A stretch of DNA of 20,270 bases from a virus. The position numbers were made by a program, and so were the translations under genes. Each line of letters begins with the position of its first letter. The first letter of the stretch is position 1. The stretch lies in the IMG/VR virus record IMGVR_UViG_3300012931_000892; one strand, written 5' to 3'. Below, one piece after another: positions 7,349-11,755 of this stretch. Under the pieces are notes generated by a model. The model was not told where the DNA came from. It did not search any database and was given only the letters and a program-made list of their open reading frames with translations.

Positions 7349-7543
7349 CTAGAAGTCGCGGTCGCCAATGATCAGCACCCAGCGCAGCATGTTCGGCTTG
7401 CCGGGCGGTTGGATCAGCAGCGCCGGAGCGCCTTGGAACTTGCCCTCCTGGAGCACATCCCAACGATCCGTTCCAGCCTCGCGAACCCTGTTTTTGCCTT
7501 TGAGACTCTTTGGAACCAACCTGACCGACACGACCTTTTCCAT
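7349..7543 (-). CDS. hypothetical small protein (64 aa)
   Basis: ORF starting 1 nt after the RNA ligase stop. No recognisable motif. Confidence 0.25.
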   Translation of the reverse strand: MEKVVSVRLVPKSLKGKNRVREAGTDRWDVLQEGKFQGAPALLIQPPGKPNMLRWVLIIGDRDF

Positions 7544-7544
7544 A

Positions 7545-8258
7545 CTACTTCCCCAGCTTGTTCTTGATGATGTCGGCTCGTGTGGAGAAGTGCGACCCAG
7601 CGATGAACCCGTGCCGCACCATTTTGAAACGATATATCACCCACCTACCGTCGCCGACCTTTATGTACGCGCCCTCGCGCAGATCCCTGGACGAGAAGGA
7701 CGACCGCTGCCGGAGCATAGCCGCCAGCTGTTCCGGGTCCTTGATCGGTCCGCTGTGGAGTTGTGGCACCACCTCGAACCCCGCAGCGACCAGGATGCCA
7801 CGCGCCTCGAGCGGATCAACGAACCGCGCGGAGCCGTAGTCGTAGAGGTCGAACGCCATGAAGAACGACGGCAGCAGGTCGTACTCCACGCTGTGGCAGG
7901 CCAGCAGCCATTCGCCGAACACGCTCGTGTCGGGCGCGAGCCGCTCCAGCTCGTCGAACAGGTGCGCGTTCTCGTAGTACCAATTCCAGATCGGGGAGAA
8001 CTGCTTCTTGGCCGCCGTCCTGGCCGTGTGGCCCTTCCGCAGGATGTGGTTCCTGTTTCGGATGATCGGTCCCTTGGCCATGCCGACATTCGCCCCGTCC
8101 ACCTTCTCCGTCACCTGGACGCGGTCGGATTCGAAGATGATCCGGCACTCGTCCTCGGTGGCGACCAGGTCGTCACGGGTGGCATTGGGATTCCACGGCA
8201 GATGCTGCGTCCTAGGGTAGTCGGGTAGGATGTCCCGTTCGTTGACGAATCTGGACAT
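7545..8258 (-). CDS. ATP-dependent RNA ligase (Rnl2/PF09414-like nucleotidyltransferase)
   Basis: 'YPRTQHLPW....VTEKVDGANVGM' matches the KYPRTxHL ... EKxDGxN adenylylation (KxDG) motif of this ligase family. ATG at 8256-8258, directly abutting the ParB-like stop. Confidence 0.6.
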   Translation of the reverse strand: MSRFVNERDILPDYPRTQHLPWNPNATRDDLVATEDECRIIFESDRVQVTEKVDGANVGMAKGPIIRNRNHILRKGHTARTAAKKQFSPIWNWYYENAHLFDELERLAPDTSVFGEWLLACHSVEYDLLPSFFMAFDLYDYGSARFVDPLEARGILVAAGFEVVPQLHSGPIKDPEQLAAMLRQRSSFSSRDLREGAYIKVGDGRWVIYRFKMVRHGFIAGSHFSTRADIIKNKLGK

Positions 8259-8675
8259 TTAGAACTCTGGAGCTTTCCTGGTTTTTCCCGTTAGGTAGTT
8301 CAGCGTGGACACGAGTCCGCTGTAGGATGCTGGTATGCGCCTGCGGCGCAGGATGGACACAGCGATCAGCCTGTGGTGTCCGTCGACCACTATCGGCCCG
8401 TAGAAATGACCGTTGTAGGTATCGTTGTCCAGGACGATGGCGTCTATCCTGCTGGGATTCTCGACGAAAAAGCGAATCCTGGCGATGTGCTGGCGGCGAG
8501 AGACGATGCGCTCTTTACTCCAGCGGATCGGCGTCTTGCGCGACGAATATCTGTAGAGGCTGCAGACAACCGTTTCCTCGTCGAGACCCAGGGTCACATA
8601 TGGATCATAGTAGTGAAGCAGGCGACCAACAAGCACCATATTGGTTTCCTGCGATATCTCATCTATGTGCTCCAT
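8259..8675 (-). CDS. ParB-like nuclease (ParB/Srx fold) domain protein
   Basis: 'GPIVVDGHHRLIAVSI' matches the DGxHR(L/R) ParB N-terminal domain motif. ATG at 8673-8675 with GGAG upstream. Confidence 0.5.
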   Translation of the reverse strand: MEHIDEISQETNMVLVGRLLHYYDPYVTLGLDEETVVCSLYRYSSRKTPIRWSKERIVSRRQHIARIRFFVENPSRIDAIVLDNDTYNGHFYGPIVVDGHHRLIAVSILRRRRIPASYSGLVSTLNYLTGKTRKAPEF

Positions 8676-8685
8676 GGGAAAGCTC

Positions 8686-9357
8686 CTAGTCCGCCACTAC
8701 GCTCCATTCAGAGGTGAATTCCTTGATCTCTTTGGCCTTTTGTCGGATTTCGTCCGCTGTCCAGGCCAATGCCTCGTTGTTACCTCCGGCTAGGTTCCAG
8801 ACGAAACGGTGCGCCGTCAGGGTGCTCGGCTTGCCATTCGAGGCGAGCACGGCCACGAGTACGTGCGTGAAGCCCATGTCCATGACGCGCTTGCGCTCGT
8901 CCTCGGAGCAGTCCGGATCGCGCAGATATGCGTCGAGAGTGTAAACCACTGTGAACACTTTGTCCACCGGTATAGCAAGGGTCTTGCGGATTGTCCTCGA
9001 AAACGTCTTAGCACCATTGGCGGACTCGATCTTTTCGTGGATGGTGATGGTCCTATATCGTTTCAGGTACATTCCCACATCGCCACGGTTGACCCGGATG
9101 ACATAGTCGTCCGGATCTTGCGTCCGATGGCCGACCCCGCTGGACACGAAAGAGCAGACTTCTTGACCAAGAGCAATGTATCCTTGACCTGGTTGTCGGC
9201 AAGCCCACCACGGATAGTTCGTGATGGCATTAGCTAGACAAAACATGAACTTCTCTTTGTCTAGCACTTTGCTTCCGATCGTATTCTCGTCGAACGCCGT
9301 TACGATGTCGGCGAGTCCGATACATAAGCCGTGGTAACAGAAACTCATATGTTTCAT
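8686..9357 (-). CDS. hypothetical protein (223 aa), no motif recognised
   Basis: ATG at 9355-9357 with AGGA upstream. Sits in the same tight run as the ParB-like and RNA ligase genes. Confidence 0.45.
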   Translation of the reverse strand: MKHMSFCYHGLCIGLADIVTAFDENTIGSKVLDKEKFMFCLANAITNYPWWACRQPGQGYIALGQEVCSFVSSGVGHRTQDPDDYVIRVNRGDVGMYLKRYRTITIHEKIESANGAKTFSRTIRKTLAIPVDKVFTVVYTLDAYLRDPDCSEDERKRVMDMGFTHVLVAVLASNGKPSTLTAHRFVWNLAGGNNEALAWTADEIRQKAKEIKEFTSEWSVVAD

Positions 9358-9405: not shown

Positions 9406-10038
9406 TCACACAATCTCGTCTACCATTCCCAGTTTGAGAGCTTTGTGTGCGCCAAACCAGATGTCGTGTTTGAGGATCCCGTCCAACTTTTTCCGCTTGA
9501 TTTTGGTGTACTTGAGGTAGACATCCCGGATCTGCCGCATAAACGATTTGCTATTTTCCATGTCATCGAGGAGTTCCTCGTACTTGCCAAAGTGCCAGCC
9601 TGACAATTGATGGATTAGGATGTAGGCGCTAGCGTTGATAGTTCGCTTGGCAGCCACCATAAACGGGAACGTGGCCGCGCTGGCACACATCCCGTCAATG
9701 ACAGCGTGGACTGGGACAGGACACCGGCGCACGGCGTCCATGGCCGCCACGCCTGAAAAAACACCGCCTCCACCACTATGGATATGGAGGATGATCGGGA
9801 GCGGGTCGCCACCGTTCTCGATCGCCTGGGTGCGCTGCTTATTGGATAAGGTGTGAAGAGTGTCGATCAGGACTGCGACCGTCTTGGTCATGATGGGGGC
9901 GTAGAAGTAGATGTGGTTCCCCACCAGTCGGATCTCGGAGTCGTCGTCGTGATCAGCGGATCCCCACAGCGGCTGGTCGTTTTCCTTCTCTTCTTCTTCC
10001 TTGGTTTGCCTGCCCCTTTTCCGGATGTCGGCCATCAT
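9406..10038 (-). CDS. clpP: ClpP-family (peptidase S14) serine protease
   Basis: 'ILHIHSGGGGVFSGVAAMDAV', 'VIDGMCASAATFPFMVAAKR' (catalytic Ser), 'ILIHQLSG' (His) and 'IRDVYLKY' (Asp) align with the ClpP catalytic triad regions. ATGATG at 10038 is preceded by GAGGAG. The longer N-terminal extension in the supplied ORF is probably untranslated. Confidence 0.65.
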   Translation of the reverse strand: MMADIRKRGRQTKEEEEKENDQPLWGSADHDDDSEIRLVGNHIYFYAPIMTKTVAVLIDTLHTLSNKQRTQAIENGGDPLPIILHIHSGGGGVFSGVAAMDAVRRCPVPVHAVIDGMCASAATFPFMVAAKRTINASAYILIHQLSGWHFGKYEELLDDMENSKSFMRQIRDVYLKYTKIKRKKLDGILKHDIWFGAHKALKLGMVDEIV

Positions 10039-10048
10039 TACTTTCTCC

Positions 10049-10330
10049 TCATTGTCGAAAAAGGCCCTCGATGCTGATTTGGTTGATGCCGATGATGGCA
10101 TCCCGCTCATCACCTCGTTCCACCATTATTCCACCAATTAAACGCAGCGCAGGATCTCCCCCCGGAATGTGACGGTCAATCCTGTCGCCAGGCACATATA
10201 TACCAATGAGCCCGATACCATCTCCCATTGGTTCATATACAGCCAAGCGTAGTTCGAGCAAGAATGCTGCATCCCATGGTCCTAAGGACAGGAGAGCTCC
10301 ATGTCTTCGGTAGCTATTGGTCGCGTCCAT
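10049..10330 (-). CDS. hypothetical small protein (93 aa)
   Basis: ATG at 10328-10330 with AAGGA upstream. Its stop sits inside the ClpP RBS. Confidence 0.35.
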   Translation of the reverse strand: MDATNSYRRHGALLSLGPWDAAFLLELRLAVYEPMGDGIGLIGIYVPGDRIDRHIPGGDPALRLIGGIMVERGDERDAIIGINQISIEGLFRQ

Positions 10331-11663
10331 GCTGTTCCTTATCTTTCTCCGCTAAAACGGCATAGATATTGCCCCAAATTTTCTCGATGAGGAACACGTG
10401 CGACTTGTCGCCATCCCCCTTCTTGCTCAGGTGATGGGCCAGTTCATGGATCATGGTGATGAGCGTCTTGACCATGTCAGACAGCACGGCTTTCGACACC
10501 ATGATCATTTTCCCGTTCCAGAGGCCCCACCGATCATCGGAACGGAACGATACGACATCCAGGATCTCCATCGGCACCCTGTGGCCTGCGCGACCAATAA
10601 GATCAACGGCCTTCTCCAGGTTTGCCTGCTCCTCCTGGGAAAGGTCCGACCAAGAATGCCGCACGACGATCTCCTCCCCCGCTTTCCTCTTGATCCCCTC
10701 AATGCCATCCTCTATGCCCATGAGGGTCTGAAGCAGCTTGGCCAATGTGGCAGGTAGAACGATACCCTTCTTTCCGAAGTGGTCAAGATCCTTGGACTCC
10801 ATGATGTTGGCTACCGGTACCGCTTCGCTGCCGAAGGTCCTGGTAAATTCGGAGACCAGTGCCGTCCTGGCCTCGTCGGACAAGTAAGACATCGAGTAGG
10901 ACGAGAGATCATTCGTGTCTGGTGCATCCTTACTCAGAAGGTCGTACAGCTTCCCCACCAGCGTCGGCCTGATTGATACAGCTTTCGCCCATATCGTAGC
11001 CAGACGCCAACCGAGATCGTACTGCGAGATGACCTTACGGTCCCTGTCGGTCGGGGCGTTGAACAGGTCGTATCCCGCCATGAGCTTAGGATCGTACTGG
11101 ACGAAAATGCCTTTCACAAATACCTTTCCCGACATGGATGGGTCGAGCAGCAGGCTACCCCACTCATCCACAGCCACCTTGTCGAAGTCGTCCCGAAGGA
11201 AGAGGAAGTTGGACCGCATCTCGGCCCACTTGGCGGACGAGATCTTGTCCACCTCCACAATGATGCCGCCGCAATCTTTGGCCTCGGAGATATCGAACGC
11301 CAACACTTCGACCTGGAACTTCTTCGAGCGGATGAGAATCGGTTTCCAGATCTCCTTGCCAGAACGGATCACGACCTTGTGCCCAGCACGCGTTAGACAC
11401 AGACTGGACAATTTGATTCCTTCTCCAAATTGTCCAATCATATCTTGACGTCCCACCTTGGTTGTGTGACCAAACAAAAGCGCCTCATGGGACAGCGTTA
11501 CGCCTGCGTTCTCAATCTTTAGGACATGACCGTTATGCCAGATTTTCATCGGAGCCTTGAACTCCGTTTCAGCATCCTTGGCATTCTGAATAAACTCCCG
11601 AATACCTTGCTGCATGCCCCAATCCGGCAGGTATGTAGTCTTGACCGTCAATTCAATGCGCAT
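10314..11663 (-). CDS. GHKL-type ATPase (Bergerat fold) protein with a C-terminal HExxH zinc-metallopeptidase-like motif
   Basis: The N-terminus 'IREFIQNAKDAETE' matches the Bergerat motif I (ExxxNxxDA). 'ENAGVTLS' matches the G1 box. 'GQFGEGIKLSS' matches the G2 box. Near the C-terminus, 'LITMIHELAHHLSKKGDGDKSH' contains HELAH plus a downstream His. Start taken at ATG 11661-11663 (GAGGA upstream) rather than the TTG at 11684. Confidence 0.4.
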   Translation of the reverse strand: MRIELTVKTTYLPDWGMQQGIREFIQNAKDAETEFKAPMKIWHNGHVLKIENAGVTLSHEALLFGHTTKVGRQDMIGQFGEGIKLSSLCLTRAGHKVVIRSGKEIWKPILIRSKKFQVEVLAFDISEAKDCGGIIVEVDKISSAKWAEMRSNFLFLRDDFDKVAVDEWGSLLLDPSMSGKVFVKGIFVQYDPKLMAGYDLFNAPTDRDRKVISQYDLGWRLATIWAKAVSIRPTLVGKLYDLLSKDAPDTNDLSSYSMSYLSDEARTALVSEFTRTFGSEAVPVANIMESKDLDHFGKKGIVLPATLAKLLQTLMGIEDGIEGIKRKAGEEIVVRHSWSDLSQEEQANLEKAVDLIGRAGHRVPMEILDVVSFRSDDRWGLWNGKMIMVSKAVLSDMVKTLITMIHELAHHLSKKGDGDKSHVFLIEKIWGNIYAVLAEKDKEQHGRDQ

Positions 11664-11755
11664 CAGAATCCTCGTTTTCTTCAACCACTATTTTCTAGGT
11701 CAGTCCTACATGAATATTATTGTCCGCTTTATCGACGAAACCATTGACGAAACTC

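Follow-up and report, generated by a model that had tools for sequence, protein, structure and literature searches.

A block of three genes from an uncultivated large phage encodes an RNA ligase and, a short distance upstream of it, a 223-residue protein whose relatives elsewhere are fused to, or lie beside, enzymes that heal broken RNA ends. The block is in a 20,270-nucleotide stretch of the IMG/VR virus record IMGVR_UViG_3300012931_000892 (the window), which is part of an 83,189 bp contig (k141_4595205; ENA ERZ27227667); the related phages are represented by contigs of 129–306 kb. The third product, encoded between the other two, is a 138-residue protein with a ParB/sulfiredoxin (ParB/Srx) fold, and we refer to the family of the 223-residue protein as 223fam. 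From the context of these genes we think there is about an even chance that the ligase and the 223fam protein are parts of a phage toolkit for the heal-and-seal repair of RNA breaks, with 223fam as a candidate for a new component that processes the ends. The toolkit would mend tRNAs or other RNAs after cleavage by the RNases of a host defence. What is new here is that 223fam is linked to healing enzymes of the Pnkp type; the ligase itself and RNA repair by phages are already known.

Two proteins join a kinase and a 223fam domain in a single polypeptide. The first, of 379 residues, is encoded in locus L027 (9455-10591) and carries an AAA_33 kinase domain (residues 22-155) ahead of the 223fam domain; the second (P0253, 374 residues) has the same arrangement of N-terminal kinase and C-terminal 223fam domain. 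Orthologous stand-alone kinases are encoded immediately upstream of 223fam in two more loci (L028 and L030), and the best solved relative of the 223fam-linked kinase is the kinase domain of Clostridium thermocellum Pnkp (CthPnkp; 4jst/4gp7, E 4e-24). At locus L031 the gene upstream of 223fam encodes a Metallophos protein that matches both ApaH-like enzymes and the CthPnkp phosphatase domain (4j6o, E 1e-10), and a gene for RlaP is 2 kb from 223fam. The phage loci thus resemble the bacterial Pnkp-Hen1 system, in which CthPnkp comprises kinase, metallophosphoesterase and Rnl4 ligase, but they differ from it in having separate genes for the parts, and a Hen1 methyltransferase is not seen; the ligase in the window is not an Rnl4, and nothing in Pnkp-Hen1 corresponds to the additional component 223fam. 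A sequence-only reading of this DNA had proposed that the 223-residue protein might supply end-healing, and its family is indeed fused or adjacent to Pnkp-type kinases and found near Metallophos, 2H, HAD-SAK, cREC and RlaP genes. The complete gene order in L031 (L031:8922-13678) is Metallophos, a 66-residue ORF, 223fam, a weakly matching DSP-like phosphatase, a 199-residue ORF, thymidine kinase and the RlaP nucleotidyltransferase, and a weak SpoU-like methylase match (E 2e-4, below the cut-off) is present 2 kb downstream of the fusion gene in L027.

Neighbouring genes were surveyed with a codon-usage gene caller that reproduces the public gene calls of the window, and the neighbours were scanned against Pfam. 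Within 3.5 kb of 223fam in 17 non-redundant viral loci there are 133 ORFs, among which are six with Metallophos, four with AAA_33, two with 2H/LigT, and one each with HAD_SAK_2, cREC_REC and RlaP. As a control, 133 ORFs were taken from these loci at distances of more than 4.5 kb from 223fam; they include no more than one instance each of Metallophos and AAA_33 (neither is among the families listed), and Fisher tests of proximal versus distal ORFs give p values of 0.0008-0.017 with the relatedness of the phages ignored. The distal flanks hold genes for Ro60-vWA, CCA-adding enzyme, NADAR and PhoH, and the regions around 223fam are therefore RNA-metabolism islands in general. The corresponding survey of the ligase family (146 ORFs within 3.5 kb, 18 viral loci) finds the AAA_33 P-loop kinase to be the commonest Pfam family among the neighbours (8 ORFs), together with class II tRNA synthetase core (4), His_Phos_1 (3), Metallophos (2) and HAD_SAK_1 (2); at locus L011 a histidine phosphatase gene is followed by the ligase, a 74-residue ORF and a kinase. 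The kinase adjoining the ligase family has no relative in the PDB by phmmer.

The 223-residue protein matches no Pfam, PHROG or NCBIfam family, in keeping with its earlier description as unassignable. A word-indexed search finds 246 relatives and an exhaustive search at least 520 clusters at 50% identity (298 at E ≤1e-30); tblastn against 50,697 GenBank phage records gave no match. The family has a core of about 190 residues, to which the protein in the window and its nearest relatives add a β-hairpin at about residues 101-126, and its motifs are IGSKV, PGQ, VSxGxGxR, DYVxRxHRG, YTxDAYLxDPD, THVLVAV, NLAGGNxEA, ADEIRxKA and a C-terminal VVAD. These include two glycine-rich loops (VSxGxGxR and NLAGGN) and a DPD motif, and residues Q58, Y85, R88, R91, R100, Y139, H165, N188, N193 and E195 are invariant or nearly so; the pattern of conservation looks like that of an enzyme. 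The AlphaFold model is very confident (pLDDT 95, pTM 0.85), and the fold that it predicts is nearly unique. One sub-domain resembles RelE/BECR, and the sole further occurrence of the fold is the orphan structure of Cryptosporidium parvum cgd2_2020 (PDB 2pd0), which is 12% identical and has no link to 223fam at the sequence level. The function of 2pd0 is unknown, and a purine-nucleoside-like pocket has been proposed for it from a comparison of clefts (PMC3892921). Structure comparison against BFVD gave no match, and there is no true relative of 223fam among PDB sequences; a profile match there to designed armadillo repeats was rejected as spurious because it sums weak repeat matches. Apparent fusions of 280-580 residues in GC-rich loci proved to be Arg/Pro-rich upstream extensions of the ORF and not domains, and the extra parts of the other long database matches contain no Pfam domain. 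Members of the family are also present in metagenome-assembled genomes (MAGs; L048-L068) labelled as Patescibacteria, Gammaproteobacteria, Bdellovibrionota and Thermoplasmatota, and several of these loci fit the gene caller poorly and may have an unusual composition or genetic code.

The ligase matches the Pfam RNA_ligase family PF09414 over residues 46-212 at 80.2 bits (cut-off 27; E 2.6e-22), with further matches to three RNA ligase families of PHROG. The assignment as a ligase made in the sequence-only reading is therefore upheld by profile searches. In an alignment of 41 relatives (46-86% identity) the motif residues are invariant or at least 90% conserved: motif I is EK52VDGAN, Ia is IR67NRNH, III is GE116W, IIIa is FD137LYD, IV is RE195GxYxK200 and V is RFK212MVR, with K52, D54, R67, E195/G196 and K212 invariant and E116, D137 and K200 nearly so. 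The protein is predicted to be a covalent nucleotidyltransferase of the RNA-ligase type with an intact catalytic apparatus. Because the Pfam domain covers residues 46-212, the protein consists of a nucleotidyltransferase (NTase) domain with an N-terminal extension of 45 residues and a short tail (25 residues past motif V). The extension is itself conserved (LPDYPRTxHLPWxPN..RDD), with P12, P15, H19, N25 and D30 invariant.

The nearest solved relative of the ligase is the NTase domain (residues 165-324) of NgrRnl, a Naegleria RNA ligase of the Rnl5 family (profile E 3.6e-4), with whose motif V lysine K212 aligns. The remaining PDB matches at E ≤1 are to PAB1020, Rab-type GTPases and an ATP-dependent DNA ligase; T4 Rnl1 and Rnl2 are not among the names of the entries matched. 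No Pfam family besides PF09414 is matched at E ≤0.1, and the protein gives no Rnl1 profile match, Rnl1 being a Pfam family separate from PF09414. It also lacks the C-terminal domain specific to Rnl2. Members of the Rnl5 family (NgrRnl and Deinococcus DraRnl) have a 126-residue N-terminal OB domain that is needed for adenylylation (PMC7261155), whereas here only 45 residues, with a conserved motif of their own, precede the Pfam domain. All six structurally characterised families of RNA ligases have a clade-specific flanking domain that is needed for adenylylation, and NgrRnl without its OB domain is adenylylation-defective (PMC7261155). Taking together the domain build, the PDB and Pfam matches and this rule of flanking domains, we would place the ligase in the RNA-ligase NTase superfamily outside Rnl1, Rnl2 and Rnl5. 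The superfamily is known; the protein adds to it a member whose domain-less build is unusual. T4 Rnl1, the ligase that counters PrrC/RloC, is of a different family; that role had been credited to ligases of the present family, but it belongs to Rnl1, and the nearest solved relative here is the NTase domain of a nick-sealing Rnl5 enzyme.

The clade to which the ligase belongs is populous in metagenomes, with 252 matches, many of them on contigs of 100-630 kb. The best match among GenBank phages is 46% identical and comes from an uncultured 595-kb phage, and matches of about 27% identity are found in Caulobacter CcrBL9-like phages, Salicola SCTP-2, Ralstonia RsoM2USA, Sinorhizobium Phosso and others. 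Many homologues of 237 residues carry the JGI name 'atypical dual specificity phosphatase', a label that probably goes back to an orthology model derived from a fusion protein, and in one relative (P0169, 397 residues) HNH domains are fused to the ligase.

The window contains no AAA_33, HAD, His_Phos, 2H or Metallophos gene, and the earlier remark that no kinase or phosphatase accompanies the ligase is correct over this length and, for kinases, over the longer stretch considered below. Outside the window, 12.4 kb downstream of the ligase, is a gene for a 279-residue Metallophos protein, which may be a 3′/2′,3′-phosphoesterase for the ligase; in the window, 223fam is a candidate for that role by its context. 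The Metallophos gene is part of a cluster (L047:14556-20921) in which it is preceded by CTP_transf_like (the second such gene on the contig) and 4HBT genes and followed by TnpB (OrfB_IS605/Cas12f-like TNB), an Rv2179c-like exoribonuclease and a CCA-adding enzyme (PolyA_pol and HD domains); an endonuclease VII gene also belongs to the cluster. The Metallophos, exoribonuclease and CCA-adding enzyme genes lie 12-17 kb downstream of the ligase. The same downstream Metallophos gene is present at two related loci (L044 and L045), the first of which also has the CCA-adding enzyme, and the further 10 kb of the contig upstream contain nothing relevant.

Repair by these proteins would begin with a host RNase leaving broken RNA ends. 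The 223fam protein would process the ends, most likely as a phosphoesterase or with another end-processing activity, and the Metallophos protein encoded 12 kb downstream may also act on them; the ligase, adenylylated on K52, would pass AMP to the 5′-phosphate end and seal it to the 3′-OH, and the CCA-adding enzyme further downstream could mend the 3′ ends of tRNAs. A phosphoesterase is the simplest guess for 223fam because it takes the place that the phosphatase has beside a Pnkp-type 5′ kinase in T4 Pnkp and bacterial Pnkp. All of this scheme that goes beyond folds and family assignments is argued from gene context. Jumbo phages combine such enzymes for RNA repair (PMC7824862). The likeness to the heal-and-seal repair of T4 (Pnkp and Rnl1, and also Rnl2) lies in a phage ATP-dependent RNA ligase, in neighbours whose relatives elsewhere pair with polynucleotide kinase and phosphoesterases, and in the presumed purpose of countering a host defence that cleaves RNA. 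It differs in that the ligase is not an Rnl1 and is without the C-terminal domain of Rnl2, that no Pnkp-type kinase-HAD protein is encoded within 39 kb, and that T4 has no equivalent of 223fam or of the ParB/Srx protein.

An RNase role for 223fam is a real alternative to that of a phosphoesterase, as suggested by the RelE-like sub-domain of the model and the Arg/Tyr/His conservation. RelE-type active sites are rich in Arg, Tyr and His, and so are the conserved residues of 223fam (Y85, R88, R91, R100, Y139 and H165). The protein would then itself be a metal-independent endoribonuclease with a RelE/BECR-derived fold, and the kinase, phosphatase and ligase would act on its cuts, in a programmed cut-and-rejoin or RNA-processing system with a logic like that of Las1-Grc3 or tRNA splicing instead of the repair of damage done by the host, for which a small ORF of 65-73 residues directly upstream of 223fam in several loci might also speak. 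We think this account improbable, as the partner is absent from the window and in MAG chromosomes the gene stands alone in housekeeping surroundings, an observation that does not cover the presence of a small partner gene there.

Conservation of the three genes as a unit was examined at 18 IMG/VR loci with the ligase family and 18 with 223fam, each with 10-kb flanks, in which all six-frame ORFs were scanned with profiles of the three families. Neither 223fam nor the ParB-like gene is present within 10 kb at any of the 18 ligase loci, and all 18 of the 223fam loci are likewise without the ligase family and the ParB-like gene over the same distance. The RNA repair module put forward in the sequence-only reading therefore survives in part: the 223-residue protein is linked to end-healing by the fusion and by its neighbours elsewhere, but conservation of a three-gene module is not supported, the trio being absent from all 36 distant viral loci. 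The trio is complete only in the contig of the window and at L004 (on a 129-kb contig), where the ParB-like gene abuts the ligase and four small ORFs lie between 223fam and that pair. At L044, L045 and L046, whose ligases are 75-80% identical to that of the window, the order 223fam, ligase and NMN/NaMN adenylyltransferase (NMNAT) is kept, and in L044 and L046 a small ORF separates the last two genes. All three loci lack the ParB-like gene, and its slot is occupied by two unrelated small ORFs in L045 and L046 and by a GIY-YIG endonuclease gene in L044; the small ORFs filling the slot in L045, L046 and L004 were tested as remnants of the ParB-like gene and rejected. In all five close relatives 223fam is 0.3-2.2 kb upstream of the ligase, and this proximity is clade-specific synteny.

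It is possible, if rather unlikely, that the genes are neighbours by descent only. They would then be unrelated auxiliary genes, with the ligase working alone, for example in sealing RNA or RNA:DNA nicks, 223fam being a general enzyme of nucleotide or RNA metabolism, and the ParB-like protein an independent NTPase or nuclease. The lack of co-occurrence at distant loci and the variable slot between 223fam and ligase fit this explanation, as do the housekeeping contexts of 223fam in MAGs and the lack of nearby repair genes at most metagenome 223fam loci. It does not account for the separate association of both families with end-healing enzymes elsewhere, for the kinase-223fam fusion, or for the order from 223fam to ligase that is kept in all five relatives.

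Several further points count against membership of the ligase and 223fam in a common repair toolkit. Outside the clade the two are never within 10 kb of each other, and their adjacency may be inherited synteny. The MAG loci place 223fam among housekeeping genes (IleRS, ROK, GNAT), some of them on megabase contigs. The enrichment of repair genes near 223fam is modest, with relatedness among the phages ignored, several of the loci that have such genes are related to each other, and only a minority of 80 further metagenome and 21 MAG 223fam loci, scanned with narrow profiles, have kinase or Metallophos neighbours. No tRNA genes were found near the block, and there is no polynucleotide kinase gene in the 39 kb around the ligase in the 83-kb contig. 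Possible explanations for this last absence are that the kinase is encoded elsewhere on the contig, that the host supplies it, that the substrates already have a 5′-phosphate, or that a non-canonical protein does the work. The activity and the substrate of the ligase are themselves uncertain because the flanking domain is missing (PMC7261155).

The 138-residue protein has the α+β fold of the ParB/Srx superfamily, which had been suspected from its sequence and is confirmed by fold comparison. The hints at the sequence level are weak (ParB-like phrog_1033, E 0.0064; SerK, E 0.028), with no match to Pfam ParBc, and a ParB-like profile found nothing useful among PDB sequences. A match to KptA_kDCL (E 0.013, below the cut-off) was dismissed as an identity because the fold is ParB/Srx. 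The family is tiny, with nine relatives, in which V96, D98, G99, H100, H101, R102 and L103 of the Gly-x-x-Arg-type pocket motif are invariant; a pattern scan found no relatives in IMG/VR, and tblastn none in the 50,697 GenBank phage records. Compared with other members of the superfamily (sulfiredoxin, the SerK/SbnI kinases, PadC, KorB, Osa and phage DdrB-like ParB domains) it is a small, single-domain protein. It has neither the helix-turn-helix nor the C-terminal dimerisation domain of a partition ParB, there is no ParA-like gene in the window to partner it, and the word 'nuclease' earlier attached to it is a family label and not a finding. No ParB/Srx member is known from beside an RNA ligase, and PMC5512222, which mentions ParB together with RNA ligase and RNA repair, describes no such link.

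The abutting of the ParB-like gene and the ligase, which had made the protein appear to be a ligase partner, is seen in two genomes (the window contig and L004); three of the five close relatives are without the gene, and none of its distant homologues is beside a ligase. Because the close relatives fill the slot otherwise and the distant homologues lie away from ligases, we regard the gene as the occupant of a variable slot, and the protein is an optional, lineage-specific accessory or passenger rather than a defining part. That it supplies an NTP-dependent step, such as that of a kinase, is an attractive notion that rests on the two genomes. In its stronger form, with the protein providing the missing 5′-kinase or NTP-dependent step and the pair being a functional unit, the proposal could draw on the weak SerK match, the abutting genes in two phages and the lack of a P-loop kinase in 39 kb, but the rarity of the pair, the replacement of the gene by unrelated small ORFs or a GIY-YIG gene, and the distant homologues that are not beside ligases make it quite improbable.

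The coordinates of these and the surrounding genes are collected in Table 1. The three ORFs of the block (7545-9357) have exactly the positions first described for them, the gene calls in the public record of the contig are identical, and all three are genuine genes rather than chance ORFs; for the ligase and 223fam this follows from their numerous relatives. The stop codon of the 223fam gene is TAG, after which come ten nucleotides containing AGGAG and the ATG of the ParB-like gene, and the TAA of the ParB-like gene directly precedes the ligase ATG (TAAATG), so that these two reading frames do abut as had been described. No promoter-like or terminator-like site above chance was found in the block, which sits within a long co-directional run of auxiliary genes on the minus strand, and megablast of 6.2 kb against GenBank phages gave no match.

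Table 1. Positions of the ligase block and of other genes in the window
Feature	Position	Strand	Remarks
RNA ligase	7545-8258	minus	237 aa; NTase domain only, PF09414
ParB/sulfiredoxin-fold protein, minimal	8259-8675	minus	138 aa; VVDGHHRL motif
223fam protein	8686-9357	minus	223 aa; uncharacterised enzyme-like family
64-aa ORF	7349-7543	minus	ATG one base past the ligase stop
HNH/endonuclease VII-type homing-endonuclease-like gene	6608-7315	plus	phrog_1035 endonuclease VII, E 7e-36
NMN/NaMN adenylyltransferase, NadD-like (NMNAT)	5889-6557	minus	PF01467, E 5.7e-11; TIGR00482, E 1.7e-29
Vault-like protein	2064-4634	minus	856 aa; major-vault-protein shoulder, E 2.1e-26; vault repeat, E 4.4e-11
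Band_7/SPFH protein	1-921	minus	three small genes away from the vault-like protein
phrog_6077 protein (456 aa), ORF of about 93 aa, ClpP-like protease	9406-11684	minus	set upstream of the block

The most faithful neighbour of the ligase, more so than the ParB-like gene, is the small ORF that follows it. Homologues of 73-80 residues, 75-88% identical, are directly after the ligase in L004 (11106-11348), L044 (10713-10943) and L046 (10710-10931), and the ORF starts within a base or two of the ligase stop codon, the L004 copy overlapping by four bases; the copy in the window has a shorter C-terminus than its homologues. No copy was found at the distant ligase loci, and there is no relative in the PDB. 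The ligase block is separated from the NMNAT gene by an HNH/endonuclease VII gene on the opposite strand, whose position is empty in L044 and occupied by a different opposite-strand gene in L045. Homing-endonuclease-like or opposite-strand insertions around the ligase are thus variable, being HNH/endonuclease VII in the window, GIY-YIG in L044 (9292-9948, minus) and a gene for an unknown product in L045 (10686-11372, minus).

Downstream of the ligase, the next gene to be conserved in the clade is that for NMNAT, which is syntenic in L004, L044 and L045. The order ligase, small ORF and NMNAT is kept in four relatives, which, together with the second CTP_transf_like gene on the contig, could suggest a block centred on NAD+, in which a ligase-like enzyme and NMNAT act on NAD-related substrates and counter NAD-depleting defences. 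We consider this highly improbable: NMNAT is within 3.5 kb of the ligase at none of the 18 distant ligase loci (only L021 has it, 8 kb away), so that the link holds only within the clade, the ligase has standard ATP-dependent ligase motifs, and no NamPRT or other NAD-salvage partner is seen.

On the other side of the block, the set formed by the phrog_6077 protein, the ORF of about 93 residues and the ClpP-like protease is syntenic in L044, L045 and L046, and L004 has the outer two without the small ORF between them; the N-terminus of the phrog_6077 protein is HATPase-like of the sacsin type (NF047352, E 1.8e-6). Further along the window, the vault-like protein is encoded three small genes upstream of the SPFH protein, an unusual pair on a phage contig.

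A more far-reaching proposal, which we hold only tentatively and think unlikely in its full form, is that the 223fam proteins form a new class of enzymes that process RNA ends together with Pnkp-type kinases and RNA ligases, either as a 2′,3′-cyclic phosphodiesterase/phosphatase or as a site-specific RNase, and that the domain-less ligase relies on partners in trans, these being the abutting ParB/Srx protein, in the role of a kinase-like factor that depends on NTP, and/or the 64-residue protein. RNA repair is a recognised answer of phages to host defences that cut tRNA, and the list of its known parts is short: kinase, HAD, 2H or metallophosphoesterase, RlaP, and the ligases Rnl1, Rnl2 and RtcB. 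With its more than 500 clusters, its fusion to a Pnkp-type kinase and its near-orphan fold, which is modelled with confidence, 223fam may be an overlooked component of such repair, and the populous clade of NTase-only ligases is relevant to the rule by which adenylylation of RNA ligases depends on a flanking domain.

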